Source: Promethearchaeota archaeon (GTDB taxonomy: Archaea > Asgardarchaeota > Lokiarchaeia > Sigyniarchaeales > SOKP01). Taken from it: a stretch of 64,000 nucleotides of DNA. The stretch is taken from NCBI GenBank assembly GCA_016840085.1, contig JAEOTA010000012.1:132847-196846 (forward strand). Direction: 5' to 3'. The notes below the pieces were generated by a model that did no database searches, was not told the DNA's origin, and worked only from the letters and a program-made list of their open reading frames with translations. Within the stretch, counting starts at the first letter, position 1. The number at the start of each line of letters is the position of its first letter. Of the stretch, positions 38,758 to 60,056 are shown piece by piece. Both the position numbers and the translations under genes were made by a program.

Positions 38758-40017
38758 CTATAGAAAGATTGGTTTATAATTCAAAATTCCTTGAATTCTA
38801 TCAATCTTTACCAATGCTTTTTCAATAAGTTTCATTCTTATATCAAATTTAATTATTTTAGTTCTTCCATAATGTCCCATTGATTTAACCTCAGCGGAGA
38901 TTATTCCTACTAGTGATAAATCATTAATATAATCAGCAATTCTTCTTCTAGTCAATTGCCTAACACCAGGTATTAATTCTGCAACTTTAGAATGGATATT
39001 ATAAATATCCCCAGATATAATAGTATGCTCAGGATTAAATTTTGAAATTAAATATATTGATAGTAAAATTATTTGTGCTTGAAGTGGTAAATTTTTTATA
39101 TATTCTTTAATATAATCATTTTCTAATTCTTTTTGGGCTTTTCTTACATGTTTAACTGTGATAATTTTGTTTTGAGCTCTCTCCGCTAATTCACCTGCTC
39201 TTCTTAACAATTCCAGTGCCTTTTGCGCATAACCATATTTCATTGTTGCTAAAACGGTACATAAAGGAATAACTTCTTTCGTTAAAACGCCCTTAAGAAA
39301 AGAAATTTTGGATCTTTCAATCAAAATATCTTTAAGCTGATCTGTACTATATAAAGGAAAAAGTATATGTTCTTCGCCTAAATTGGATATTATTCTTGGA
39401 TCCAAATTCTCCCAAAATTTTAATTTATTCGAAATAACAATTAAACTCGTTTTACAATTGTCCAAATTTTCATTTAGTTTTATTAAATCACATAGAATTT
39501 CATTAAAACCTTTCTTATCAGCTAAAACATTTATTTCATCTAAAACCAAGAAAAAAATTGAATTTCCAAACTTTGAATCTAATAATCTAATCAAATTTTT
39601 GAAAATTATATCCTTTAGAAGGCCTGTAGGTGGAATCTTATCCTGTCTCGAAATTGTGTTATAAATATGAGCTAAAATACGATAAGGAGTTGAAAAAATA
39701 TTGCAGTTAATATAGATCCAAGATGGTTTAATTTTTGAGTTCTCTTGTGCTAATTTTTGACTCACATATCTTATGGTAACAGTTTTTCCCGTACCTATCA
39801 TCCCATAGCATAGAAAATTTTGAGGTGTATCACCTAATAGAGCGCATGCTGTCTTTTCAATAATATCTTTAATTTGAGTATCACGATGAGGTAATTTATC
39901 AGGAACATAAGACGATTCTAAAGCATCACGATTTTTAAAAATCCGTGGTCCTTTAAGATAGTTTTTATAAAATTTATCGATATTAAATTTATAATTATTA
40001 TTATGATTTTTCAACAA
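38758..40017 (-). CDS. cdc6: Orc1/Cdc6 replication initiator paralog with substituted ATPase motifs
   Basis: YVPDKLPHRD, GTGKT, YINC, LVLDEIN, LIVISN, FPLYS..QL..IL..R, C-terminal wHTH (GHYGRTK). Confidence 0.92.
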   Translation of the reverse strand: MLKNHNNNYKFNIDKFYKNYLKGPRIFKNRDALESSYVPDKLPHRDTQIKDIIEKTACALLGDTPQNFLCYGMIGTGKTVTIRYVSQKLAQENSKIKPSWIYINCNIFSTPYRILAHIYNTISRQDKIPPTGLLKDIIFKNLIRLLDSKFGNSIFFLVLDEINVLADKKGFNEILCDLIKLNENLDNCKTSLIVISNKLKFWENLDPRIISNLGEEHILFPLYSTDQLKDILIERSKISFLKGVLTKEVIPLCTVLATMKYGYAQKALELLRRAGELAERAQNKIITVKHVRKAQKELENDYIKEYIKNLPLQAQIILLSIYLISKFNPEHTIISGDIYNIHSKVAELIPGVRQLTRRRIADYINDLSLVGIISAEVKSMGHYGRTKIIKFDIRMKLIEKALVKIDRIQGILNYKPIFL

Positions 40018-41436: not shown

Positions 41437-41952
41437 TTAAACAAATCTATGATATTTTTCGGGCGTAAAATTAATATTTAAATCTAATAATATCTCGGGT
41501 AATTCAATAAAAAAGCTAATAAGGAGATCCTTGTAATATTCTTCCAGTTCAGTGTAATTTAACAAATCAACTTCATTATCATTTTTTTTATGAGATCTCA
41601 AAGTTTTTTTAATATTATTTTCTTTTCTTTCATCATAATCTTTATCTCTGTATTTTAAAAATTCCTGAATCGTCTTTCTAATAACTTTTCTACCTAATAC
41701 TGTTATTGTGTATTTTAATGGACGTGAATTAATAGTCTTAACATAATTCTTAAGTCTTAGGCGTTTCATTGTTTGAGAAACTTGACTACTACTTCTGTTT
41801 AAATATTCCTTTATTTCACTAAAATAAGCGGAATCTTCTCTTCTAGTAAAATAAAACAGAATTTTAAAAGTAGTAATTGAAATTGTCCTTGGTCTATAAT
41901 CATAATTTGATTTTGTTTGATTTATATCAATTACTAGTTTATTCACTTTCAT
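41437..41952 (-). CDS. MarR/TrmB-like winged-helix regulator
   Basis: SEIKEYLNRSSSQVSQTMKRL..KNYV....RP..YTIT..GR. Confidence 0.75.
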   Translation of the reverse strand: MKVNKLVIDINQTKSNYDYRPRTISITTFKILFYFTRREDSAYFSEIKEYLNRSSSQVSQTMKRLRLKNYVKTINSRPLKYTITVLGRKVIRKTIQEFLKYRDKDYDERKENNIKKTLRSHKKNDNEVDLLNYTELEEYYKDLLISFFIELPEILLDLNINFTPEKYHRFV

Positions 41953-42249: not shown

Positions 42250-42273
42250 CAAGAGGTATAAGTTTACCTCTTG
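42250..42273. promoter_or_regulatory. Perfect 9-bp inverted repeat with a 6-bp spacer
   Basis: CAAGAGGTA-TAAGTT-TACCTCTTG. Confidence 0.55.
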
Positions 42274-42579
42274 TGAGTTTTCAAAAATAAATCAAAATCC
42301 TTTATAAATAAATCGATATAGTAACAATCTATTTTTCAAAATATTCCAAAATTTTTCAAAAAAAATGCAAAATCATTTATAAAGATAAAAATTGGAATTT
42401 CATTTTCTTTTTTCATAAATAATACAAAAATCTTTTGATCTATTAAATGAAGAGTTTAAAAAAAAGATTCAAAATCCCTAGAATATTTGGATAAAACTAT
42501 TATAAATATATTTTAAATGAAATATAACTCTCGTTTGACTATTTTCCCGATAACCAGTGTCTCAAGCCCGTGGTGACAA

Positions 42580-42721
42580 CCTAATTAAGTAGCAAAATGC
42601 AATATCGCCTCCTGTATCGCCTTCTTAATTAGTAGGGAATAAGTGATACTAACCCTTCTCTAGCCTTCCTAATTACATAGGGAACTGCGATACAACATCA
42701 CTTATCGCCGCACAGAATGAA
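42580..42721 (+). repeat. Cluster 1 of ~44-bp degenerate palindromic units (3 units)
   Basis: Consensus TAATTAGTAGGGAAnTGCGATA-N~11-TATCGCCTTC; ends CGCACAGAATGAA. Confidence 0.75.
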
Positions 42722-42826
42722 TTATGATTAGGTAGTTTTAGTAATTTTTAATGAAAAAATATCTGGATTATTTAAGCTTTCTTACTTTAAATAACATTTA
42801 TATATCAAATTAACAATCTTTCTAAT

Positions 42827-43081
42827 ATGGGAGATATATTACCAGAAGATGAAAATAGGAATTTAAAGTGTATTAATTGTGGAGAACCCGCAATTTTTCA
42901 GTATATGTACGGATGGATTGTTGATAAGTTAATTGATGATACAGAATTTTGCTTATGTCTCAATTGTGCTAAAATGATTGGATCAAATATCGTTCAGGAT
43001 GTATTAAGAAAGGAAATCAATTTTAAACCTATAGGGAACAATAAGAAATTTATTGAGATGCTTAAAGAGAAATTTTCTTAA
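42827..43081 (+). CDS. Small zinc-binding protein
   Basis: CINC...LCLNC; lies between repeat clusters 1 and 2. Confidence 0.65.
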   Translation: MGDILPEDENRNLKCINCGEPAIFQYMYGWIVDKLIDDTEFCLCLNCAKMIGSNIVQDVLRKEINFKPIGNNKKFIEMLKEKFS

Positions 43082-43128
43082 AAGTTCTTTAAAGTATTGT
43101 GTATTATTAATAGAACTATAGTAGCTTT

Positions 43129-43223
43129 CTAATAACATAGAGTATTATGATAAAACACCATTTATCTCCTTCTAATTAATACGGAAATGCGATACGACAC
43201 CTCTTATCCTCGCACAGAATGAA
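43129..43223 (+). repeat. Cluster 2 of ~44-bp units (2 units)
   Basis: TAATTAATACGGAAATGCGATACGACACCTCTTATCCTCGCACAGAATGAA; same terminal motif as cluster 1. Confidence 0.75.
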
Positions 43224-43231
43224 TATTATTT

Positions 43232-44704
43232 TTATTTTTTTTCAATTATAAAATCTCCAATTGGGAATTTGGCATATTCATTAGGATCATTCCTATTTAT
43301 TATTATATTAGTAAAATCAAAATTGGTTTTAGTAGGTTTTTCAATTCTGATAAAAATTTTCATACGAAAATCCATTAAATCTATAATTACTTCTTTAACC
43401 TCAATTAATCTTACTAAATCTTCGGGTTGATTACCTTCATTCGTATGGGTTACAATAAGATTATATAAACTTTTTTTATAATCCATTGGTAAATGTTCCA
43501 TAATAACATAATTTTCATTTTTGGAGATATCATATAGAAATTTTCCACGAATATTATTATTACTATTTTTCCATTTTAATTCAGCTTGTTTATAACCTCT
43601 ATAAATTTTGTTTAATCTTTTTATATAATTATATATTTCCAAAAAATCATCAGTTAGCTCTATTAATTCTTCTTTTTCAGATTCGTTTATAATTTCATCT
43701 TTCCATTGAAAAATTCCTCCAACATAATCTGCATAATTGTTAATAACCCCGAAAAATTTCAAGAATTTACGATAAGTAAAAAATTTGAATTTTTCAAGAA
43801 ATTCAACGGGTTTAATACTTTCCTTTTCTCCAATATCTTGTAATGATAAACCTTTATGATATAAATCATTTCTAATCCGATTCATTATCATAATGAAATC
43901 AAGCTCTTGATCGGTAAATATATCTCCTTCTTTATCAAACATTTGAAAAATTCTGTAGGTTGCAGGACTATAATTAGCTATATCTTTGGAAAGATCCCGC
44001 TTTAGCAGACTCTTATAGTTGTATTTTCCATTTAGAATATTTTCAAGGAGAATTTCTTCAGGTTCTAATCTTTCAATGAAACAATCTGTGATTTCTTTTA
44101 ATGTTTTAATAAATTCATTATATTTAGCTTTATTAATAACATACAAATAATTCTTATCTTTTTTCCAGTATTTAGAAGCTAAATGCTCCCAAGTATTCCA
44201 TAAAAGCCCTGCACTAATTTCAAACATAGTACTTCTTAATCCCGCGTTTAATTCTGCGATAAGATGAAACAATCCATCTTTTACTTGATTTTTAAGTATA
44301 TCTTCATACCATTTATCAAAAATAAATTGTATGATTTTTATCCTAACTCCTGAAAGAGAGAAGTGGTGTTTTTCAACAAAAGGTTCTGGAATTGGATATA
44401 AATGAGCTTTTTTGAGTAATATTTTTTCTTCAAAATAAAAATGATATGTCTCTTTTGAATAAAATTGATTTCCTAAGAGTAAGGAAAAAAAAGATATAAC
44501 TAACTCTATATTATACTTTAAGTCTCTCTCATTTTCTTCTATATCTGATTTTATTAATAAATATGAATAAGAGTTAATATCAAAAAAAATGGTTCCGCCA
44601 GCTTTTTCAGATTCAGAGGGCAATAACCAGATATTCTCTTTTAACCTTATAACACTATTACATTTCAAATACAAAATCCTAAAGATATAATAGTTAATGG
44701 TCAT
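43232..44704 (-). CDS. ApeA-like HEPN-domain protein (putative RNase effector)
   Basis: LLWNTWEHLA helix and RIRNDLYHKG (Rx4H). Confidence 0.7.
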   Translation of the reverse strand: MTINYYIFRILYLKCNSVIRLKENIWLLPSESEKAGGTIFFDINSYSYLLIKSDIEENERDLKYNIELVISFFSLLLGNQFYSKETYHFYFEEKILLKKAHLYPIPEPFVEKHHFSLSGVRIKIIQFIFDKWYEDILKNQVKDGLFHLIAELNAGLRSTMFEISAGLLWNTWEHLASKYWKKDKNYLYVINKAKYNEFIKTLKEITDCFIERLEPEEILLENILNGKYNYKSLLKRDLSKDIANYSPATYRIFQMFDKEGDIFTDQELDFIMIMNRIRNDLYHKGLSLQDIGEKESIKPVEFLEKFKFFTYRKFLKFFGVINNYADYVGGIFQWKDEIINESEKEELIELTDDFLEIYNYIKRLNKIYRGYKQAELKWKNSNNNIRGKFLYDISKNENYVIMEHLPMDYKKSLYNLIVTHTNEGNQPEDLVRLIEVKEVIIDLMDFRMKIFIRIEKPTKTNFDFTNIIINRNDPNEYAKFPIGDFIIEKK

Positions 44705-44720
44705 CTTTAATCCTTAAACT

Positions 44721-44887
44721 TTTATCTTATCCTATAATACACTCTCCAGCAATATAATTCTTTCCCCTTTTTCCTAATAATTCTTTTTCAGACCTCTTTT
44801 TTTAAGTTAAATTGGGAACTGTGATATCACCCCTTCTCTCGCCTTCTTAATTAGTAGTGACAATGTGATATAATACAACTTATCGTC
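44721..44887 (+). repeat. Composite intergenic module: 'B' element + cluster 3 of ~44-bp units
   Basis: TCTTATCCTATAATACA..CAGCAATATAATT, then GGGAACTGTGATA...TCGCCTTCTTAATTAGTAG...TGTGATA...TTATCG. Confidence 0.7.
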
Positions 44888-44918
44888 AAAAAAATTAATA
44901 GGTACATCTGAAAAAACA

Positions 44919-45452
44919 TTAATGAGTTATGATCTCAGGTTTTAGATTTGGACCAGGATGCCACAATAGCAATATTTTTTCAGGATATATAAAAGTTCTA
45001 TTTTTAAAAGCTTTTATAATGCTTTTATTAAGCAAATCAACCCCGTTGGAATAAATAAGCATAATTCCGTAATGATATTCACCAACTTCAATAAAGTCAA
45101 TTATTTTATCTAAATCATCCTCTAAATTAGTGATTGAATCGAAAATACTTTTAATCGGTTTAACTTCAATAATAGCTAAATTATAATCCATCTCGCCACG
45201 AGAATGAATAACAAAATCGGGTATCTTTGGACTTAGTATGGGGTGAGATTTTTTATCTAGTTCTCCATCCAACATATAGTTATAATCATCACCCAATAGA
45301 TTGCGTAGCTGATGATATAATTCATAACAAAAAACTCGTTCTCTGTATATATTATTTGGTAGATCACTTACTGAGATATTAATGTATTCTCCATCTACTC
45401 TTGTTATTGCTTTTATTAATTGTTCTAAAAAATTGTTAAAATCATTTTCCAT
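44919..45452 (-). CDS. PD-(D/E)XK (GxxExxY-like) nuclease-fold protein
   Basis: ERVFCYELY, IPDFVIH, IIEVK, DLDKI. Confidence 0.7.
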   Translation of the reverse strand: MENDFNNFLEQLIKAITRVDGEYINISVSDLPNNIYRERVFCYELYHQLRNLLGDDYNYMLDGELDKKSHPILSPKIPDFVIHSRGEMDYNLAIIEVKPIKSIFDSITNLEDDLDKIIDFIEVGEYHYGIMLIYSNGVDLLNKSIIKAFKNRTFIYPEKILLLWHPGPNLKPEIITH

Positions 45453-45481
45453 ATAATCATTTCATATTTAAAGTAATTTTT

Positions 45482-45650
45482 TCTTATCCTATATTACATT
45501 GTACAGCAATATAATTTTTTACACATTTTTAGGAACTGCAATTGGACAGCTTTTATTATCTTCTTAATTAAACATAATTATGCAATACATCCCATTCTAT
45601 CACCTTATTAATTGAGTAAGGAAAAGGGTGATTACACCAGTTATCTCTTC
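45482..45650 (+). repeat. Composite intergenic module: 'B' element + cluster 4 of ~44-bp units
   Basis: TCTTATCCTATATTACA..CAGCAATATAATT, then AGGAACTGCAAT...TATCTTCTTAATTA...TGCAATAC...TATCACCTT. Confidence 0.65.
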
Positions 45651-45774
45651 TATTCATTATATTAAATTTCCTCTCTTGAATGATTTTATGTAAATTTTAT
45701 TATATATTTGTTTTTAAAACACATTAAATTAGGAATATATATCACTCTTATTGGGATTGAAATTTTAAATTGAA

Positions 45775-45799
45775 TTTTTTTTTTTTTTTTTTTTTTTTT
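45775..45799 (+). repeat. Homopolymer T25
   Basis: Uninterrupted run of T. Confidence 0.8.
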
Positions 45800-45822
45800 C
45801 AAATAATTCTTGTCTTAACCTA

Positions 45823-47104
45823 TAATAAATGCAACAGAATTATATCTTTTTCATTAATTCTGTAGTTTTAAATTTATAGTGGATTATTCATTATTTGCTT
45901 AATAATGACAAAAAAAATTTACAAATTTAAAGTTCGTAGCAAGCTATATTTTGAAATTGAGAAACTAAATTCTTTAAAATATTGATAAAAATGAGTACTA
46001 ACAACATAGATTTTGATATTTTAAAAACGAAGTTAAAAAATAGATTAGCTTATATTCTATTCGTAGATTTATTCAATCCAACGATACATGAAGGGAAACT
46101 TGACACTTATATTGATAATATGAAATTAACCCTTGAATTGATTGATAGCTTATGTGTTAAAAATTATGATAAGGTTTATCCTCTAATTAATATTCCAATG
46201 GAAATTCAGATTAAGGAGTACCAAACTTTTTGTCTTCCTAAGAAACCTATTGAGGAAATAGGACAATTTTATTTTGAAAATGAAGAGATATTTCAAAATA
46301 AAGGTAGATTTAGACCAGCAGTTGAATATAAAAATATAAAGATTCTTTTTGATACAAAAAACTTTCTTCCTTTAGGATTACCAGACCATGCTTTAATTGG
46401 GATAAAGAATAATGCTGGTGCGTTTTTTATTGAAGAAAAATTTGTTTTAGATGATGCATTTTATTTTCTGGCTTATACCGAAAAGTTAATTGATGATTAT
46501 AAAAAAATCCCTGAAGGAATATCTAAAGAAAAAAAGAAATCTATAAGCCGTAATTTAAGAAGTAGTATATGTAGTAATTCTCGCTCCGCAATTCTATTTT
46601 TTAATAATTTTATTGAATGTTTTGTTAGTTCTATTGGTTTTAATTACTATTCCAACAATGAAAATTTGTTGTCCAAAGAGCAAAAAAGCATATTATTAAA
46701 GGGTAAGAAACTTGGGAAAAAATTTTTACCATTAAAGAGAAAAATTGTTGAGATTTTAGATATTATTTGTATAGATGATTCATTAAAATTAGTATGGAAT
46801 AAAGATAATCCAATAGATGAACCCTATACAAGTTTTTTCAAATTTATTCGCCAACTAAGGACTTTACTTGTTCATCCAGGACCAGTAAGGAATGGTATGT
46901 TTCAATCTCCAGCAGATTGGTACCAGGAATCTTACACATGCGGGAAAATTTGTATGGAAATATCACAAGATTTATGGAAAAGATGCTATCCCCATAGAGA
47001 ATTCCCAGAATATCTTGAGTTTCTTGATTTTGATAAAAATCTAAAAAAAGGATATAAACGATTAGATTTAGATTAATAAATGTAACAGAAATATATCTTT
47101 TTCA
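45823..47104 (+). repeat. 31-bp direct repeats (2 mismatches) bracketing the HEPN gene
   Basis: TAATAAATG(C/T)AACAGAA(T/A)TATATCTTTTTCA at 45823-45853 and 47074-47104. Confidence 0.75.
45982..47076 (+). CDS. HEPN-like domain protein
   Basis: AILFFNNFIECFV helix and LRTLLVHP (Rx4H). Confidence 0.6.
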   Translation: MIKMSTNNIDFDILKTKLKNRLAYILFVDLFNPTIHEGKLDTYIDNMKLTLELIDSLCVKNYDKVYPLINIPMEIQIKEYQTFCLPKKPIEEIGQFYFENEEIFQNKGRFRPAVEYKNIKILFDTKNFLPLGLPDHALIGIKNNAGAFFIEEKFVLDDAFYFLAYTEKLIDDYKKIPEGISKEKKKSISRNLRSSICSNSRSAILFFNNFIECFVSSIGFNYYSNNENLLSKEQKSILLKGKKLGKKFLPLKRKIVEILDIICIDDSLKLVWNKDNPIDEPYTSFFKFIRQLRTLLVHPGPVRNGMFQSPADWYQESYTCGKICMEISQDLWKRCYPHREFPEYLEFLDFDKNLKKGYKRLDLD

Positions 47105-47228
47105 CTCTTAACTAACAAATAGAGAATGTAATAAGAAAAAATCATTGTCAAATTATCTCCTCCAATAAATAAGGTATTAGAACGATCTTTAAAACGCCAA
47201 ATTGCTTAATTTATTCTCATACATAAAA

Positions 47229-47936
47229 TTATCCAATTTTTATTCTTGGTGGAATTATTGACTGTGTTGTCCTTGATACGATTTGTGATATGTTTTTTTC
47301 AATAGGTCGTAAATAAAGTGGTAATGTATCTGGTTCTCCGCTACGTCCTTCTTTCATTCCATATGTTCGATCACTTTCTCTAAAAGGATGTGGCACTACT
47401 ATCGTGAACCTTCCTCCATCGCACACAAGAGCGGTATAATAATCAACTCTAGATACATTGTAATATACGTTTATACCCACTGCCCAATATCTGGGATCAG
47501 GAAAGTCGGAAGCCCAATTGAAAGTGTAATTTTGCAATTCCTTAATAAGTTGTCTTGTTTCATCATCATATTGTAAATGCTCTCCTCTTCGTTCTGCTTC
47601 GATTTCTGGATCATTTTCACAATCATATTCGTCTTCCAACCGCAACGAAACATCTTTTTTATAGATATAAACCGATTTGTGAGTATTGTGAAGACATTTT
47701 TCTCTCCGTTCGCAATTATAACATTTTTGCTTTATTGAATCAATATCACATGAGTAGTGTATCCAATCATCATAGTTTGATGTCAATAAAATGTTCTTGA
47801 TATATTCTATGCTCTTGTTTCCACCATTCATTTTTTCTTTTAGTTTCTCTTGGACGAACCAACTAAGATTTAAATTAGTTAGTTCCACATATTCAGCAAG
47901 TTCATCGGATATAGTTATTTGTTTCCTAGTTGTCAT
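47229..47936 (-). CDS. Protein with an N-terminal RHH/CcdA-like domain and a Cys cluster
   Basis: RKQITISDELAEYV...NLSWFVQEKLKE; C...CYNC....C. Confidence 0.65.
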   Translation of the reverse strand: MTTRKQITISDELAEYVELTNLNLSWFVQEKLKEKMNGGNKSIEYIKNILLTSNYDDWIHYSCDIDSIKQKCYNCERREKCLHNTHKSVYIYKKDVSLRLEDEYDCENDPEIEAERRGEHLQYDDETRQLIKELQNYTFNWASDFPDPRYWAVGINVYYNVSRVDYYTALVCDGGRFTIVVPHPFRESDRTYGMKEGRSGEPDTLPLYLRPIEKNISQIVSRTTQSIIPPRIKIG

Positions 47937-47938
47937 AT

Positions 47939-48259
47939 CTAAATCACCAGTTTTTTATTCCTAATGATCAGATTATATTTTCTCTGAAAATATTCTAAAA
48001 TCCAGTCTTCTATTTCTCTATTTGCTTTGTTGATTACTTCTTCATTAAAATCATCCGATTCAACAATGCAACTAAAGTCAATCTCGATGGTTTTATGCTT
48101 CGTTCTTGCAATAAATTTTACATGTGGTGTGCGTTGATTACGAGCTAAAAAATCATTATGGTTACCATCAATCTGGATATTGAAACCTTCTTTTTCATTA
48201 TGTGTTTCTATTTCTTGTTCTTTTATAATATTATAATACCCAGTAATTTTCATTGACAT
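47939..48259 (-). CDS. Hypothetical protein
   Basis: ATG ORF ending 2 nt before the next start. Confidence 0.6.
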   Translation of the reverse strand: MSMKITGYYNIIKEQEIETHNEKEGFNIQIDGNHNDFLARNQRTPHVKFIARTKHKTIEIDFSCIVESDDFNEEVINKANREIEDWILEYFQRKYNLIIRNKKLVI

Positions 48260-48549
48260 ATTATTATGTATTGTGAATATTTTTGTGTATTATATGTCTT
48301 TATATGTATTTAAATTTTTTGATTTATTCTTTAATTTATCAAAACAATAATCTATTTATGTTTGCTTATATGGTACTAGCATCATCATAGATCATCGTAA
48401 AGCGTTGTTTATGCAAAAGCTGTATCCCATCCTATTTGAGATTGAGTGAAGCATTCACTTCTTTTTTAAGAAAAATATCGCATTCTGGACACGCCAAAGA
48501 ATTGTTAATTTCCTATTATTTTTTATATTTGTGAGATTACACTATAAAT

Positions 48550-49011
48550 ATGAACAATTTTTTAGTCAAGGATTTCGAAAATAAAGATATTGAATATTCT
48601 CTTAATGAATATAATTTTGATGAGAAAACTCTATACATTGCTCCAATTGAATTTAAAAATGATAACCCTGTATATATGGCAGATGCATTAAACTTTTATC
48701 AAAATGTGGATAAAATCGGAGGGATTAATGCTGAAATCTTAGTAAAAAGAGATAATTATACGCGTTTGACATATGATTTTGTCTCTATTTATCTGGGAAT
48801 GTTTATTGGCGTAGGTTTGTTTGCTCTTGGTCATTTTCTCTATGATCTTTTAAAGAACAGAAAAAAGATCGATCCAAATGAAGATATCTATATTAATTTT
48901 AAATATCTTGATATAGAAGAGGGTAAGGTCTATGAGTATTCAGGTGATTTTTCTGGGCTAAAGAAATTAACTCCTGATATATTGCAGAAAATCGAACCTT
49001 TATTAAAATAA
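48550..49011 (+). CDS. Hypothetical protein with one central TM segment
   Basis: FVSIYLGMFIGVGLFALGHFLYD. Confidence 0.65.
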   Translation: MNNFLVKDFENKDIEYSLNEYNFDEKTLYIAPIEFKNDNPVYMADALNFYQNVDKIGGINAEILVKRDNYTRLTYDFVSIYLGMFIGVGLFALGHFLYDLLKNRKKIDPNEDIYINFKYLDIEEGKVYEYSGDFSGLKKLTPDILQKIEPLLK

Positions 49012-49041
49012 GACAAGGAGGGTAGCAGTTATGAATTATGG

Positions 49042-49461
49042 ATGTATGCTCAAAGACAAATGGCAAAAAAGACATGGAAATCACTCCTTAGATATTTGAG
49101 AAAAATTGATTTATCTTTTTTTTCAGAAGATATCTTTAGAAATGAAACAATTTTTAATGAAGAGATATATAAAATATTAAGAGAAAAATTTCCAAATGTG
49201 AAAATGAACGAATTTATTTCAGGGCGCATACATGTTGATGTTTCTGAAACGAAAATTGCAATTGAGATTAAAAAATTGGAATCAAATACTCCAAAAGATG
49301 AATTAATTGGACAAATCAAGGAAGATCTAAGAATCGGAACATATATTTATGGAATAATTTTTGGAATTGACTATACAAGTAATAAAGATTTAATAAAATA
49401 TAATGAATTAATATTTGAGGATGGAAAAGTTTACTGTATTATTAAACCTTATCCATATTAG
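49042..49461 (+). CDS. Small PD-(D/E)XK restriction-endonuclease-fold protein
   Basis: EF...RIHVD...IAIEIK....LIGQ; SD GGAGGG upstream. Confidence 0.6.
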   Translation: MYAQRQMAKKTWKSLLRYLRKIDLSFFSEDIFRNETIFNEEIYKILREKFPNVKMNEFISGRIHVDVSETKIAIEIKKLESNTPKDELIGQIKEDLRIGTYIYGIIFGIDYTSNKDLIKYNELIFEDGKVYCIIKPYPY

Positions 49462-49502
49462 GAAGTATAGGAGACAATATCTTCTAAAAATTTATGATTA
49501 TT

Positions 49503-50150
49503 CTAATGTGTTTGATGTAAAATAATTGATATACCATGTTTTCTTAAAAATCCAATTAATTTAGCTTCATTGGGATAATAAATATATGAATTACACAAAT
49601 GATGAATAAATCTATTCCATATAACTCCTTTTTCTTGATCATTTAATGATTTTAATTTACCTTTTCGTATAATTTTGTTACTGAGTATCTCATTTTCTAT
49701 ATTTTTTCTATTTTTAATAAAAAAATACCCTAATGCTTCATAAGAAGGAATTTCCTTCTTGAATTCTTCCTTTACTTTGATTAACCATTCAAAAGAATAG
49801 CAAATAATATAGTCAACAATTATATTATCATCTAAATATATAACATTTCCCTCAGTTTTCTGGAATCGTCCAGGTTCATTTATAACATAGCTCTCATTAA
49901 CACATAACCTATTTAATATATTGTTTATATTATTTAGATCTCCTACACTCTCATACTTAATGCCAACTTTTACATGAAAGTAAGGAGAAGAGTAATGTGT
50001 ATAATAACAACCGTTAATTAAATTTTTTAATAAACTCTCTTTTAATATTTCATAAATAATAGCTCCCAAGTAATAAATACCATAATTTGAATATTCAGGT
50101 TTCGTCTTGATGTCTCTAATTTGAAAATTATCTAGGAGATCAGCTACAAT
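49503..50150 (-). CDS. Hypothetical protein; frame extends upstream of the ORF-track start
   Basis: Open to 50165; AGGTG precedes ATT at 50150. Confidence 0.55.
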   Translation of the reverse strand: MVADLLDNFQIRDIKTKPEYSNYGIYYLGAIIYEILKESLLKNLINGCYYTHYSSPYFHVKVGIKYESVGDLNNINNILNRLCVNESYVINEPGRFQKTEGNVIYLDDNIIVDYIICYSFEWLIKVKEEFKKEIPSYEALGYFFIKNRKNIENEILSNKIIRKGKLKSLNDQEKGVIWNRFIHHLCNSYIYYPNEAKLIGFLRKHGISIILHQTH

Positions 50151-50224
50151 AATACACCTATTAATTTATACAATATTACATAAATTGAATATATAATAAT
50201 ATTGAATAAATTTTTAGCAACTTT

Positions 50225-50430
50225 TTTGGAAAACTTAGCATTTATTTGGAAAACTTAGCATTTATTTGGAAAATTTAGCATTTATTTTGGAAATTCACAT
50301 TTACTTAAATTTCGAGGTTAAAAAGGAATCAAAGTTATTGTTAAAATTAAAAAATATACATTAATTTTGGATTATTTATGAAAAATTTTGGTTTATTTTG
50401 AAAAATTCTAGTTTATTTTTGAAAATTCAC
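50225..50430. repeat. 20-bp tandem repeat (three near-perfect copies) plus a second degenerate cluster
   Basis: TTTGGAAAA(C/T)TTAGCATTTA x3 at 50225-50284. Degenerate copies at ~50378-50430; both clusters end AAATTCACA. Confidence 0.85.
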
Positions 50431-50615
50431 ACCTCTCTAAGGTGTGATCATAATATATATTATTATACTAAATTAAGATGGGTATGTCCCCCACAACATC
50501 ACGTAGGTAGGTAAAATTATTTTTATTAAAAATTATCATGCTGTTCTATTTTATATATAAACTATGAATTGAAATACATACCAATTCAAAACCAAAACTT
50601 TTACTCCCTCCAGGA

Positions 50616-53418: not shown

Positions 53419-54987
53419 GACTATATCACAAGTCCTACTTACAAATTTAATAAACGAGATATTTCCCTAATAAATTCAATATTGTTTTCTTTAACCGTGT
53501 ATCGTCTTGCTTTAAGATCTTGATAATTTTTATAAACGGTTTTTGCTGCAATCCTGATGGGGATACGATAATCTGTTTCATTTAATTTTAATTCAATGAC
53601 TTCACTAGATTGTTTAATAATTAGGATTAATATTTTTTTTGAAGTTTTTCCATTTAAGCAATTGAATTCATGGAATTTAATTAATTCACTCATATTTTTG
53701 GTATATTTATTTAAAACATCTATTAGTGAATTTTTTTTGTTTTCAATGTCATCTAACCCAATTATTTTTCGAGGTTGTTTGTCTGATATACCAATAAAAA
53801 TTACACCTCCATCGGCATTCGCAAATGAAACAATATTATTGCATATATTTATTTCATTTTTTCTTTTAGCTTCTTTACTTTCGGGAGGTATTTTCCAAAA
53901 TTGAAATGTTTGCTTGCAATCCCAATATTGCATTTCTGAGTTATTTATAGTATATTCAATAAAGAATTTCCAAAATTTATCATCTTTAATAAGCATTTTG
54001 GGATTATTTAGATCTCTCAAGTGTGTCTTTAATGAATGTCCAATGGAATAGTATTTATTTATTAAATCTTTAATTTTTAAAAAGGGCTGATGTATTGTAA
54101 TAATTTTAATTGATTTTGGATAATTATTGTTAATTTCTTCTATCTGAGAATCAATTTTATTCATATAATAATTTGTTGTACCAGGAGATCCCATTAAAAG
54201 AGGTAAAATTATCCAACAGATATGATTATTCAATTTTAAGGAGATACTATAAGAAAACTCATCATGTTGGATTTTAAGAACTATAAGTTTATGACGGTCT
54301 TTTAATTGGGATAGATTATCATATTCTTGCGTTTGAACATATTTCAGAACTACATTTAGCATATCTATGTTTGGATGGGTATAACCTTCTGGTCCTATAA
54401 AATCAATACCATCATGATCGAACCACCATTTAATTGGATCATTTTTAGTTTGTAAATATTTAGATATAGTTTCCTCCAACAATGTTGTTTTGAGGTCTCT
54501 AGATTGAGATATATTAAGATTTAAATTAGTATAAGAAAAATTTGTTAATCCTATAAATTTCTCATAAGCATAAATATAGATTTGCCCTATAAAATTTTCC
54601 CTAAATTTTTCACTTTCTTTTAATTTTAATGAAACACTCCAATCAATGCTTAATGACTCTATAAACATTTCAAGGCTAACATCCCTATCACTCACAAATT
54701 CACGAATGTCTTTAAATTGGTAGTAATTTAGCCCAATTGAATCAAAGAAAGATTTTATATATTCTTTTAATTCAGAAATATATTTATCAACAACATTTTG
54801 CATATAAAATTCTATTCCTCTATTTTTATTTATTATATTATAAGCGAATTGATTAGAATTATGAGTTTTGATGAAAATATTCTCTAATGACTAAATGTTA
54901 ATCTTACTCTTATTAATTTTTTGGAGTAAATTGAATTTTTAATATTAAATAATAGTGATCCTGTGTAGACTATATCACAAATCCTAC
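53419..54987. repeat. 20-bp direct repeats (1 mismatch) bracketing the Schlafen gene
   Basis: GACTATATCACAA(G/A)TCCTAC at 53419-53438 and 54968-54987. Confidence 0.8.
53439..54803 (-). CDS. Schlafen/AlbA_2-domain protein with an unknown N-terminal region
   Basis: SEMQYWDCK...IVSFANADGGVIFIGISD...IIGL...IRI. Confidence 0.85.
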   Translation of the reverse strand: MQNVVDKYISELKEYIKSFFDSIGLNYYQFKDIREFVSDRDVSLEMFIESLSIDWSVSLKLKESEKFRENFIGQIYIYAYEKFIGLTNFSYTNLNLNISQSRDLKTTLLEETISKYLQTKNDPIKWWFDHDGIDFIGPEGYTHPNIDMLNVVLKYVQTQEYDNLSQLKDRHKLIVLKIQHDEFSYSISLKLNNHICWIILPLLMGSPGTTNYYMNKIDSQIEEINNNYPKSIKIITIHQPFLKIKDLINKYYSIGHSLKTHLRDLNNPKMLIKDDKFWKFFIEYTINNSEMQYWDCKQTFQFWKIPPESKEAKRKNEINICNNIVSFANADGGVIFIGISDKQPRKIIGLDDIENKKNSLIDVLNKYTKNMSELIKFHEFNCLNGKTSKKILILIIKQSSEVIELKLNETDYRIPIRIAAKTVYKNYQDLKARRYTVKENNIEFIREISRLLNL

Positions 54988-55284
54988 AAGAAAATGGGAG
55001 GTGATTTTCTTTAGTTTTTAAGTTTTAATTATTTCAATTTATATATTATTATAAGAGAACCAAAATTATGTGATAAAAAATGCAGGAAAAATCTAAAGAA
55101 GAATTAACTATTTTTACAGGTCAATTAGAAGGATTAATAGCAGATCTAGATTCTAAGGTTTATGAACTTTTTGATTAATTATAAGAAAAAGTTGATGGAA
55201 TGGAAAAAAATATAAATGAATTAGACGATAGAATCACTGAACTTGAAAAAGGCTAAAAGAACAGAATCATAATGATTATCTGAA

Positions 55285-55818
55285 TTAAACTAAGTTAATA
55301 TCAAAAAATTCTTTACAATACTGTTTAATCTCTGAAATAATTTTCTGTTTTATTTTTTTATGATCATCTGGTGCATATGGTTTAAGTATTTCAAGTTTAT
55401 CATGTGTAATAACATATCTTCCATGTAATATACTTAAAGGCGTTTCTGATTGAATCCCAAAATACTTTAAATCTTCGCTGTGACTTTTTAAAAAGGCTCT
55501 CGTTTCAGTTATCCTTCTTTGATTTAAATCTATTTTAAATGGACTTTCAATATTTCCTTCAAAGCTGATCATATAACTTTTATAATTCCCTCTATCACTT
55601 GGTTCACTTATGAATATAATCTCATTAATACTTTTCTTTATAACATTAAAGATTTTCTGGATTCTTCTATTTCGGGTAATTTCGTCTTTTCTAAGTATTC
55701 TTTCTAACCTTTCATTGGCTTTTTTGATATTTTTGATGTTGAACCATATAACAATAATTATAGCTATACCTGTAAGAATTATTCCTATTATTTCTAAAAT
55801 TAAATCGATTTCTGCCAT
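55285..55818 (-). CDS. Membrane-anchored hypothetical protein (related to 36182..36787)
   Basis: N-terminal TM segment, coiled-coil, RGNY motif. Confidence 0.65.
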   Translation of the reverse strand: MAEIDLILEIIGIILTGIAIIIVIWFNIKNIKKANERLERILRKDEITRNRRIQKIFNVIKKSINEIIFISEPSDRGNYKSYMISFEGNIESPFKIDLNQRRITETRAFLKSHSEDLKYFGIQSETPLSILHGRYVITHDKLEILKPYAPDDHKKIKQKIISEIKQYCKEFFDINLV

Positions 55819-55940
55819 AAAATATAGATTGAATTTATTGTATTAATACCTTTATCTTGTTTTTTTCTGAAAATTAATACGATAAAATATGAACTTTACA
55901 AAAATTCTATGGAAAAATTAATGCTCATGAAACTTATTCA

Positions 55941-56267
55941 ATGTTCATAGTAAGTAGTATTTGGAGATTAAAGAGTGGTGGTAGATTAGGTTTTATTACC
56001 AGTGATTCATTTTTAACCCTAAATACTCATACAAAACTGAGGGAATTTATTTTAAATTCATGTAAAATAAAGGAAATTCTTCTTGCACCAAAACACTTGT
56101 TTGATAATCAAAATACCAGCACTAGTACAGTAATTATTATATTGGAAAAATGTTCTGGAAAAGAAAATAGGGTTAATAGATTAGAAAAGAAAATAAGAAT
56201 GAAAATCAATCATTCTTTTTTTAACAAGATAAATTGCTTCATCATTAATGTCTTTAGCCCCAATTAA
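55941..56267 (+). pseudogene. Fragment of an Eco57I/type IIG DNA methyltransferase
   Basis: LKSGGRLGFITSDSFL...KLREFIL...LF...TVIIILEK; motifs I and IV are absent. Confidence 0.75.
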
Positions 56268-56832
56268 CTCAAATCCAATATTATTAAAAAAATCTTGTGC
56301 TACTAAAAAATCTTTAGCAAATTTCCTCTCAAGATTCATTTCTAAAGACTTCATCAAGTACAATAAACACACATTACATATTTAAACCTTTTGGCAAATA
56401 TGTCCAAAATCAATTGAAAAAAGTAGAAATTTGCATAATTTTTTGAGAGTTGAGTAAACGCTTTAATCAAATAATTATTAATAAATTGATTTAAAAAGGG
56501 AAAATTAATACCTAACTAACTATCTATTATACTATTTAACCAGAATTTAATAAAATTTATAAAGGGTAAATATAAAATATTAAAATGAGATATATGAAGC
56601 AAAAAATTCTACGATTCTATTGAAGTGAGAAGAATGATTAGTACCTGATAAATGATAAAATAATCCTACTTTTTCTAAATTTTGTGTTTAAATTTTTTCA
56701 GAAATCTTTAATCAATCTAAGTTGTTTTTCTACTTCTATTTTTACATCCAATTTGCATTATTATAATTTTTTGCAGTCATGGATCTCAATCCATATTGAT
56801 AAAATAAAATTAATTTAAAGGAGGTGAATTAA

Positions 56833-57066
56833 ATGGAAAACTATAGATTCCACTGGAAGATTTCAGAAGAAAATAAAGAAAGATTAACTAAACCTACGGA
56901 GATTATAAGAATTGCTTTAGAAAATGAAGGATTTATTAATGCAAGAGTTTCAAATAGCCGAAGGATAGATCCTCCCGATACTCCGATTAATCTTATTGCC
57001 CTTGGTTTCATAAAAGAAGATGTACAATATAGGATATCCATTGAAATTATGGAATCTAAAAACTAG
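56833..57066 (+). CDS. Small hypothetical protein
   Basis: Strong SD GGAGGTGA before ATG. Confidence 0.65.
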   Translation: MENYRFHWKISEENKERLTKPTEIIRIALENEGFINARVSNSRRIDPPDTPINLIALGFIKEDVQYRISIEIMESKN

Positions 57067-57766
57067 TTCTTCTTAGCTTAGAAAAAGTAAAATATTAAAT
57101 TCTAATATCTTTATATTTTTTTTTAATTCTAATATATAGGTGATAAGAAGAGACTTGAGAACATCAGAATTAAAAAAAATAAATAATGGGAAATAATTCG
57201 TAGAATTAGTTATTCGTTTTTTTTATTTGTTCTTCTTTTCATTGAAGATTTTAGGTTTCAACCACAAATAAAACAATGGCCATGTTTATGAGTTAATCTT
57301 TTATATTTATTTCTTCCCTTTATATAGGTTCTAGACATATCGAATTAACTGTATTGGGTTATGAAATCAAACTTATCTCGCTTAAATTTTTCTTTGAAAT
57401 AAATAGTTCCTAGCAATAATGTTAAGTGAATTTTCTTCTATGCCTGTCTGATATTTTTTTTGAAATCAAGACAAATGTAAGGTTGGATTCAACGACAATA
57501 TTTAAAAAGTAATGGCAATGTATTCAAAAACTACATAGAGGATTATCATTTTAGTTCCTTAAAGCTAACCACTTATTGCACTGAAACAATTCAATACTTT
57601 TTTGAAAAGAAATTTTCAAAGGTGAAAATTAAAGGAAGTATATCAAAAATTAACTCTGATACATTTAAAGAGATATCCATTATTTATTTTATTTGAAGTT
57701 TACCAAAACATTTAAATCTCGGCTTAACATAATATATTATAGAAGAGGTTTTTTAAGATTTTCAAA

Positions 57767-59236
57767 ATGGTTGAAACAAAAGTAAAATATTATGAGAAAA
57801 AAGTTATTAGAAGAACTCTTGGCATGCATTTGACTTCAAAAGATATATTTAGAGATTACATTTTTCCTTCAATAAAAGATAAATATTATGATTTTCTCTG
57901 GGTTGATCTCTATGCAGGTGAGGGAAATCTGATTTTACCAATGCTTAATTCAATTCCTGAATCAAAAAAAATTAAATTTTTTTCTAAACACCTATTCATG
58001 TTTGATATTCAAGAGGAAATGGTTGATAAGTGCATTGAAAATGCCGAATCTTATGGAATCCCTCGCAATATAGCAGAAAAAAATATTCTCCAATATGATA
58101 GCCTTGCTAATTTTCCAAAATTTTTGAAAGAAAAACCGTTTCCAATATTTCATGTTACAAATCCACCATATCTATACTTAGGCTATATTAAAAAGCATAA
58201 AGAGACTCAACGGCATTTAAAATACTTCAAGGATGAAAATACAGGTTATCAAGATCTCTATCAAGTTGCCATGATGAATGATTTAAGAAATAATGTGAAA
58301 AAACTCATTTATATAATACCGAGCAATTTTATTTTTGGATCATCTGTATCAAATAAGTTCAGGTTAGATTTTCTCATATACTACGATATTTCTAATATGT
58401 ACATCTTTGAAAAGAAAATTTTTAAACATACTGGAACTAATATATGTATCTCATTTTTTGAAAGGAAGGAAAGACCAAAAAGGCAAACCGTTAGCTTTAG
58501 AGGAATTAAAATAAAGAAAAATAAAGAACTTAAAATTACATATTATTTAAAACCCGAATTCAAATATCGTGCTGGAGCGGAATTTGATGAATTTTTAATG
58601 AATTTTCGGACGAATAAGCCTCTCATCGTAAAATACTACTTGCAAAATAAAGAAGTTTACAACAATAGAGGATCATTTGGTATCGATGTGATAGATACCA
58701 GTAATTATGTTTCGAATCAATATAAATTACTTAAAATTTATCTAAACAAGAATCTTAGGGATAAAGTTAAATCAAATATCTTGTACATCCGTACTGTGGA
58801 TACAGGGGGAAATGATAAAAGAGCAGGAGTGTATGAAATTAAAAAGGATTTTAAAGTTGATGGTATTTATGTATCTAAAGCGACTTATAGGACATCACCG
58901 ATACAGATTTTTCTAGAACCCCAAATCTCATATCAAGACCAGATTATATTGAAAGATTTCTTTAATTTTATCTTGGAATATTTTAGAGAGAAATTAGATA
59001 GCGAGTTTCTCACTACTTATAAGTATTCTAATTCAAAATATACGAGGAAATATCTTGGTCTTACACAAGTAAGAAGCTTGATTGAAACATTCCCCATTTT
59101 AAGCTTAAACAAAAATTATAAGGAACATTTGAGACTCTTGATTGAGAATAAAAATTATTCAGAACTTAAAGAATTTATAAAGAGTTTTTGTTCTAATGGA
59201 AGTAGAAAAATTACTTGTTTTATTAGAAATAATTAA
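57767..59236 (+). CDS. N6-adenine DNA methyltransferase (motif I before motif IV, gamma-like)
   Basis: VDLYAGEGNL, FDI, TNPPY, DLY, YIIPSNF. Confidence 0.88.
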   Translation: MVETKVKYYEKKVIRRTLGMHLTSKDIFRDYIFPSIKDKYYDFLWVDLYAGEGNLILPMLNSIPESKKIKFFSKHLFMFDIQEEMVDKCIENAESYGIPRNIAEKNILQYDSLANFPKFLKEKPFPIFHVTNPPYLYLGYIKKHKETQRHLKYFKDENTGYQDLYQVAMMNDLRNNVKKLIYIIPSNFIFGSSVSNKFRLDFLIYYDISNMYIFEKKIFKHTGTNICISFFERKERPKRQTVSFRGIKIKKNKELKITYYLKPEFKYRAGAEFDEFLMNFRTNKPLIVKYYLQNKEVYNNRGSFGIDVIDTSNYVSNQYKLLKIYLNKNLRDKVKSNILYIRTVDTGGNDKRAGVYEIKKDFKVDGIYVSKATYRTSPIQIFLEPQISYQDQIILKDFFNFILEYFREKLDSEFLTTYKYSNSKYTRKYLGLTQVRSLIETFPILSLNKNYKEHLRLLIENKNYSELKEFIKSFCSNGSRKITCFIRNN

Positions 59237-60056
59237 TTAATCTCTCATTTTCAACATCTTCTCCTACAAATGTGGCGTTTTCACTAATTTTGAAGAAAAG
59301 TTCTTCTAACAATAAAGCACTTATAATTATTTGCGAATCATCAGATGTCTCTATAGCCATATACATTTGTTCCCCCGATCTACGCCAACAATACCCATCG
59401 ATTATTGATAGTGGTATTACACCAGCTTGCCTTGAATATCTCTCTGATATCTTCAATGCTTCCTTAAAACTTTTTCCCTGATACCCCCCTGAACTAGATA
59501 TAAATTTCGCTTCACCTACGATATATATATCATTAATTTTAACAAATACATCTATATTCTTTTCATTTCCATTATAACCAATTAATTCTTCTGCGTTTCT
59601 CTTTCTTTCCTCCCTGCTTTCTCCAAGGATTTGTATTGAAGAATTTATTGAAAATTTATTGTAAAACCATTCATTGAATGCATTTCCTAATTGCCGGCTA
59701 GATTTTATTGGTACTATACAATTCTTAATAAGTTTATTTATATCAATATTCATAAGAAGGTTTCCAATCTCTTGAATAACATTTGGATTATTTTCAAACC
59801 ATAAAGGTTCATCTCTTAAACATTTGGCATATAAACATTCTATGGGGAATTTTAATTTATTATATTTTACGACTCTATTCAACAACGAAATTAGATTTAT
59901 ATGATCTTCTTCATTATAAGCTTGTCGAATTTGTATCTCATCTTCAAATGGAATTTCTCTAAGTGGATTGGATCTTATTGGGTAAATTTCTAGGATTTTA
60001 TCTAAATATCCATTACTATAAGCTAAAGCCATAGATTTTTCTGTCCAATTATTCAA
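59223..60056 (-). CDS. Type II restriction endonuclease, Tsp45I-like
   Basis: MNNWTEKS...YLD....YP, FPI..Y, P...RQLG, D.FVK....VGEAKF...GG.Q; convergent with the MTase. Confidence 0.75.
   Translation of the reverse strand: MNNWTEKSMALAYSNGYLDKILEIYPIRSNPLREIPFEDEIQIRQAYNEEDHINLISLLNRVVKYNKLKFPIECLYAKCLRDEPLWFENNPNVIQEIGNLLMNIDINKLIKNCIVPIKSSRQLGNAFNEWFYNKFSINSSIQILGESREERKRNAEELIGYNGNEKNIDVFVKINDIYIVGEAKFISSSGGYQGKSFKEALKISERYSRQAGVIPLSIIDGYCWRRSGEQMYMAIETSDDSQIIISALLLEELFFKISENATFVGEDVENERLINYF

Follow-up and report, generated by a model that had tools for sequence, protein, structure and literature searches.

Tn7-family transposons with defence genes as cargo are known in bacteria (Benler et al. 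2021, PMC8649781), and Asgard and other archaeal Tn7 elements have been published in a preprint whose text is without msrB, integrons or non-autonomous copies (bioRxiv 10.1101/2025.07.27.667033). Integrons of the attC type and clusters of attC sites lacking integron-integrases (CALINs) have also been described, Asgard ones among them (Ghaly et al. 2022, PMC9668308). In Tn6022, which is Tn7-like, an internal dif-like recombination site diversifies the cargo (Correa et al. 2024, PMC11014353), and some integrases of archaea are known to recombine short segments that are identical (PMC8371274). The DNA considered here, a window of 64,000 nucleotides from a Promethearchaeota archaeon of the class Lokiarchaeia (C69:132847-196846 in an assembly of 4.68 Mb and 29.5% GC), contains a row of genes joined by short repeats. 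This array works like an integron cassette array on a Tn7-type carrier, yet fails the tests for an integron, and no paper on its junctions was found in the literature. Labels beginning with C denote contigs of the own genome, that is, the assembly holding the window, or of the genome named before them; G stands for related genomes and L for the loci or contigs compared.

The junction module consists of a 50-bp element (B1), a linker and one to three dyads of about 44 bp (A), in that order; in many genomes the linker behind B1 takes a C-rich 28-bp form (B2). B1 is commoner than A, and B2 is the clearest junction signal. Cassette shuffling at these repeat-marked junctions is supported by comparison of related loci. 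The metagenome contig L186 carries a sister element that is 95% identical to the window over 42302-44872 and then, from inside the seventh A unit (A7), continues into a different pair of genes, behind which stands a further B1-linker-A module. Its second cluster has three A units, against two in the window. Another sister element, of 13.5 kb (L188), has other cassettes between the same A/B1 junctions. Among 104 B2 sites, the left flank is shared by 15 pairs and the right flank by eight, and no pair shares both (23/23). Homology crosses none of 58 B2 gaps, compared with 12 of 71 gaps without a site in these islands (p=5e-4); homology blocks that reach the B2 core end at its far edge. Breakpoints are spread across the whole site rather than falling at one base, and 74 of 76 neighbouring sites are co-oriented. 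The largest number of co-oriented B2 copies in one array, 16, is on G123:C78, where they stand one to three genes apart over 44 kb; among the genes between them is a homologue of the 177-aa gene of the window, with B2 on each side. The sequence-only reading had proposed a platform for gene capture or repeat-mediated shuffling; the L186 comparison, the differing gene order between strains and the unrelated neighbourhoods in which homologues of the 177-aa gene sit, mostly accompanied even there by B1 and either a B2 or an A site, all bear out shuffling at the junctions.

The array is the cargo of an 8,160-bp element (42272-50431) with TGTGA ends that match one another, inverted, at 19 of 20 positions. 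A 5-bp duplication, CCTCT, lies outside both ends (42267-42271 and 50432-50436; chance about 3e-4). The left end (42272-42373, + strand) comprises TGTGA and repeated A/T-rich subterminal sites of about 14 bp, and the right end (50364-50431, - strand) is accompanied by a second right end further in, whose tandem sites are of 20 bp (50214-50299, - strand), of a type that adjoins msrB in L170 and L188. The putative TnsB-type subterminal sites form three to four repeats at steps of about 20 bp at the right ends and are more widely spaced at the left. Homology with L186 begins at the left end once an insertion resembling a miniature inverted-repeat transposable element (MITE) is discounted; this insertion, of about 530 bp with short inverted ends, lies inside the left transposon end of L186 (5708-6240). 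An rve transposase beside the same left end was considered and set aside, as it looks like a separate IS481-type insertion outside the end and has no homologue in the own genome. No tnsA, tnsB, tnsC or tniQ gene lies inside the element, so that it is a non-autonomous derivative at best, and no TniQ match was found anywhere in the own genome. Judged from its ends, the element is a non-autonomous Tn7-type transposon.

The same type of end occurs at five of 16 A-bearing loci and at none of 63 others, although the model had been trained on three of these five. Sister ends lie 5 bp apart in L277, L281 and L285, one pair of sister ends shares a 5-bp duplication, and such ends adjoin the 3' end of msrB in L170, L188, L277 and L288; the window copy is inserted elsewhere than at msrB. 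At L277 (1998-17658, G093:C67) at least eight Tn7-type ends are stacked beside msrB without a transposase, enclosing metabolic cargo that includes carAB-like genes and a cation ATPase. Stacked ends of this type surround metabolic genes in another genus (g22), often back to back and 5 bp apart. TnsAB-TnsC-TniQ operons are present in the family (G096 and G076). That of G096 (L301, 1-7202 on G096:C148) encodes a TnsA-TnsB fusion, TnsC and two TniQ proteins, one of which, of 563 aa with five C2H2 zinc fingers, is possibly an unusual target selector. In G076 a complete autonomous Tn7-like element of 8.1 kb lies just 3' of the PCNA gene (L302, 6454-14571, G076:C14), with a TTTTC duplication and an empty site on own contig C4. 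The window element thus resembles the Tn7 family in its TGT...ACA ends, arrays of subterminal sites at about 20 bp, 5-bp duplication, defence cargo and the stacking of sister ends at the 3' end of a gene, and in having TnsAB-TnsC-TniQ operons within the same archaeal family. It differs in that the window copy is without transposition genes, its cargo is split by junctions that are not attC sites, and the msrB target does not appear in the archaeal preprint.

The ten A units, a number and arrangement that the sequence-only reading had given correctly, fall into four clusters on the + strand. Cluster 1 comprises A1-A3 (42582-42712, reaching 42722 with its tail), cluster 2 A4-A5 (43130-43215, 43224 with its tail), cluster 3 A6-A7 (44804-44890, with the cassette-swap breakpoint against L186 near 44872) and cluster 4 A8-A10 (45523-45652), the most decayed of the clusters. 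Clusters 1 and 2 share the terminal sequence CGCACAGAATGAA, as had been seen before, and a further trace claimed at 47110-47165 was recovered by neither A profile. Units adjoin without spacers at a start-to-start period of 43-44 bp, with a mean column identity of 70%; GTAG stands ahead of a conserved dyad, GCGATA-N10-TATCGC. When the 4.68-Mb genome is searched with the A profile, the ten window units are its ten best matches and nothing else falls below E=1.8, so the units are not scattered genome-wide. The profile was built from these ten units and is self-trained; independent support therefore comes from the presence of A in 14 of 135 family genomes (E<=1e-3) and in the metagenome contigs L145, L186 and L188. 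In a phylum-wide sample of 151 genomes, none had A.

The palindromic character ascribed to the unit is real as a dyad, with a spacer of 10 rather than about 11 nt, but does not extend to a significant hairpin: the window units fold no better than their shuffles (z +0.7 to -1.7), and 35 copies show no covariation, the level seen being reached by 418 of 500 shuffles. The conserved feature of A is thus its sequence and not a hairpin. The attC end pair RYYYAAC/GTTRRRY is absent from every cluster on both strands, and Rfam gave no family match of note for the repeat units. A CRISPR array, which needs near-identical repeats and unique spacers, does not fit units that abut at 70% column identity, and both of these exclusions agree with the earlier reading. 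A likeness to the 3' end of 16S rRNA, noticed by eye, was not significant. Repeat regions differ from those of L186 by 5.5-6.0%, genes by 2.3-2.4%, with the changes in the repeats mostly away from the consensus, and the window copy of the repeats is therefore decaying.

B1 sits just upstream of unrelated genes and points away from A. Profile matches on the - strand of the window lie about 15 nt ahead of the ATG of the 490-aa gene (44721-44771), ahead of the 177-aa gene (45479-45528) and, as an orphan with no gene behind it, at 45809-45859; a fragment at the end of the 364-aa gene (47074-47108) is shared with its homologue in L189. The sequence-only reading had noticed this second element before clusters 3 and 4 and near 45810 and 47074. 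It is real, but is not confined to those places: at the start of cluster 1, too, there are a decayed B1 and a linker (42486-42581, + strand), and B1 recurs in the own genome twice each on C44 and C9 and once each on C84 and C57. Among 54 genomes of the genus 18 carry B1, and 40 of 59 copies lie within 120 nt of the start of an open reading frame (ORF), compared with 25% of random intergenic positions. The conserved blocks of B1, which we take to be a B recognition element (BRE) and TATA box, a -10 and an initiator-like block at archaeal promoter spacing, suggest that it acts as a promoter. A Pyrococcus dif site is alike at about 15 of 22 positions, although the pattern of conservation in B1 better fits a promoter. 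An apparent methyltransferase-like coding sequence across B1 and B2 (GGGTT...GKRYISI) was rejected, as the spacing changes by numbers not divisible by three and all frames contain stops. The orphan copy follows a run of about 27 T at 45773-45800 where both Logan contigs of the locus stop, so that the join past the run is supported by the own assembly alone. The locus is also present in the sequencing runs SRR14699978 and SRR14699980.

B2 occurs in 49 of 161 genomes of the class, all within one family. A-bearing modules carry a variant linker, and that of cluster 1 keeps the central CCCGTGGTG of B2 at the same distance from B1. In cluster 3 the B1-linker-A module is 75% identical over 167 nt to a module in G076 that precedes an unrelated gene. 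The B2 core (for example in L096 near 7464) is a perfect 22-nt mirror repeat with pyrimidine arms around GTGGTG, and could form a triplex or G-quadruplex. A second, decayed array in the own genome (L005, C44 32700-39250) has three co-oriented B1/B2/A-like junctions beside a hisS-like gene. No exact match to either junction motif was found in viral contigs. Another dispersed repeat, of about 40-70 bp with the core GGTAAATTCAGAGTC, is present in L100, L052 and L055 and on own contigs C53, C56, C1 and C49, though nowhere in the window.

In its layout the array is close to integrons and CALINs, including integrons inside Tn7 or Tn402: unrelated genes and toxin-antitoxin pairs stand between co-oriented sites, their order varies among genomes, no recombinase is present in cis, and the carrier is of Tn7 type. 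Integron identity is nevertheless rejected, as there is no RYYYAAC...GTTRRRY pair, no hairpin or covariation and no IntI; the window-type junctions also differ from attC sites in the random direction of genes, in a promoter-like B1 at many of them and in tandem 44-bp dyads. A further likeness is to the dif modules of Acinetobacter (PMC13141974) and to Tn6022, in which short double-stranded sites lie between shuffled accessory modules and a host or element recombinase acts in trans. In contrast to these, A is not of 11-6-11 geometry, no native dif of the A type was found, the sites are all direct, the A units are tandem, and B2 is a mirror rather than an inverted repeat.

The best explanation, to which a probability of about 0.55 is given, is that the window element is the cargo-bearing, non-autonomous form of a Tn7 transposon whose cassettes are exchanged between directly repeated junctions by homology-driven exchange. 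The element would be moved in trans by a TnsAB/TnsC/TniQ machine, and its cargo would be a row of one- or two-gene cassettes. Each module would consist of B1 as an outward promoter for the left-hand gene, a linker (C-rich B2 or a variant) and one to three A dyads serving as double-stranded protein-binding sites. Crossovers between junctions in the same orientation, whether on different elements or on excised circles, would add, remove or replace cassettes, although these circular intermediates, like the swapping enzymes, are presumed. Because crossovers can occur anywhere in 40-90 bp of shared sequence, the likeliest agent is a homology-driven one, either the RadA of the host or a tyrosine recombinase of low specificity acting in trans.

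Several observations weigh against this explanation. The conservation of B2 across five genera exceeds what plain homology-driven exchange would need. The A units, around which the original shuffling proposal was built, show no breakpoint enrichment by themselves, homology crossing two of 11 A gaps and 12 of 71 site-free gaps (p=1). A B2 profile fails to detect A units, so that the kinship of the two comes down to position and a 9-nt linker core. As to the carrier, the ends in g22 carry no A, none of the B2 loci had Tn7 ends of the window type, no cognate transposase could be tied to these ends, and the one complete Tn7 found, that of G076, uses different ends.

A more doubtful alternative, though the strongest of the rivals, is a dedicated site-specific system, in which a tyrosine recombinase in trans, either chromosomal XerA or the 302-aa integrase of B2-carrying elements, cuts A or B2 and inserts circular cassettes in the manner of an integron, though with double-stranded sites. 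A recombinase acting in trans was part of the sequence-only reading; none lies within the element, and the swapping enzyme itself was not found. Searches of the own genome found XerA, one broken integrase and no serine resolvase; XerA is the only tyrosine recombinase common to the genomes searched, missing from one incomplete assembly. The geometry of A is formally compatible with such a system, fitting an inverted 11-8-11 arrangement, and B2 is about 90% conserved per position and GC-rich inside genomes of 30% GC. B2 also flanks several 7-11 kb elements that carry the 302-aa recombinase with a NikA-like ribbon-helix-helix (RHH) protein, an ATPase and a toxin-immunity-like pair, and this integrase is present in 15 of 19 genomes with A or B2 compared with 44 of 116 others (p=0.001, kin not being independent). 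However, tyrosine recombinases require matching overlap regions, and the spacer of A differs between copies; breakpoints do not converge on one base; a search for a native dif-like copy of A found none, and B2 is absent from 29 empty psmB sites that could have served as chromosomal attB. The 302-aa integrase scores 51 bits on TIGR02249 against a cut-off of 265 and is not IntI; its module is bounded by TGAATT repeats of its own, and it was not found in the own genome. For these reasons it was set aside as the swapping enzyme despite its link to B2, and exchange by shared sequence is favoured. A broader version is just as tentative: a gene-capture system specific to Lokiarchaeia, independent of attC and equipped with a recombinase of its own, using B2 and A as double-stranded sites with a built-in promoter, and shared by Tn7-type elements and tyrosine-recombinase elements with polymorphic toxins. 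Such RHH and 302-aa recombinase genes stand beside polymorphic-toxin-like and small immunity-like genes in L102, L103, L111, L106 and L118, the toxin-like proteins having an S24/S26 peptidase or ubiquitin-like N-terminus and a variable C-terminus. The elements are in tandem in G025 and G110, and the left edge of the RHH-integrase module is a copy of the GGTAAATTCAGAGTC repeat.

It is improbable that B1 and A are instead a portable promoter-operator block, with A as repressor or activator sites and the shuffling no more than ordinary turnover of defence islands. The promoter-like blocks of B1, its position before ORF starts and the conservation of the A dyad in sequence rather than in pairing would all suit such a block, and site-free gaps in the islands are also breakpoints (59 of 71). 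Yet many A and B2 copies lie at gene 3' ends or lack B1, gene direction is random relative to the site, and no regulator gene is linked. Nor would a regulon force the co-orientation of neighbouring sites or halt homology at the far edge of B2.

The decay of the window repeats relative to L186 and the scatter of other small repeat families in these genomes would suit inert leftovers (MITE-like or repetitive extragenic palindrome (REP)-like insertions, a decayed repeat-protein gene or copies of stable-RNA ends), but this is very unlikely and largely refuted, since the A period is not divisible by three and every frame contains stops, there is no hairpin and no Y1 or REP-associated tyrosine transposase (RAYT) in the genome, the units match neither the 16S end nor the tRNAs, 5S, signal recognition particle (SRP) and RNase P RNAs found, and B2 pairs never share both flanks. 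Bacterial interspersed mosaic elements (BIMEs) and REPs with TnpA-REP are likewise intergenic mosaics of a few short motifs, with the GTAG before a dyad seen in A; they differ from A, which is island-confined and in one direction, with no stable hairpin and no Y1 transposase, and identity with REP/RAYT or IS200-type ends was rejected on the last two grounds. Two tandem matches to RNase P RNA were noted elsewhere in the own genome (L200, C66 15325-15981).

The genes between the junctions suggest a defence function. That at 42827-43081 (+ strand) encodes an 84-aa protein with two CxxC pairs; these agree with its earlier description as a zinc protein, to which a library search added no family hit. 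The 490-aa product of 43232-44704 (- strand) was rightly called ApeA-like HEPN: RNDLYH is invariant, and the top Atlas cluster is ApeA_NTD1/HEPN_Apea (0.95). A PD-(D/E)XK assignment likewise holds for the 177-aa nuclease at 44919-45452 (- strand), in which the E..PD..EVK residues are invariant; its homologues are 40-49% identical, and several are named as bacterial. The second predicted HEPN, of 364 aa (45982-47076, + strand), is probable on the strength of an invariant RxxLxH motif, but it has no family hit and its predicted fold is unusable (pLDDT 44). Further cargo ORFs of 235, 106, 153, 139 and 188 aa extend over 47229-50069, the 139-aa protein giving a weak match to REase_DpnII-MboI (E=0.011). 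Pfam, PADLOC and NCBIfam gave no significant match for the cassette genes tested, and the named homologues of cassette genes are from Lokiarchaeia or Promethearchaeota. Related junctions carry PIN and DUF5615 toxin-antitoxin genes and an nSTAND3 NTPase.

Immediately to the left of the transposon the window has a second Orc1/Cdc6 copy (38758-40017, - strand), 72% identical to the copy on C83, and near it a winged-helix gene (41437-41952). More defence genes lie to the right of the element (53439-60056): a Schlafen AlbA-domain protein (53439-54803), a fragment of an Eco57I-type methyltransferase (55941-56267), and an N6 methyltransferase (57767-59236) with a Tsp45I-like restriction endonuclease (59223-60056).

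The end type and the msrB target widen the known range of archaeal Tn7 elements. The junction motifs can be used as search handles, the DNA between two of them being a candidate defence cassette with natural boundaries, and as the sites are short and defined the missing enzyme is directly testable. For the group of archaea most closely related to eukaryotes, the locus shows how probable defence genes, among them some that have close relatives in bacteria, are packaged and shuffled anew.

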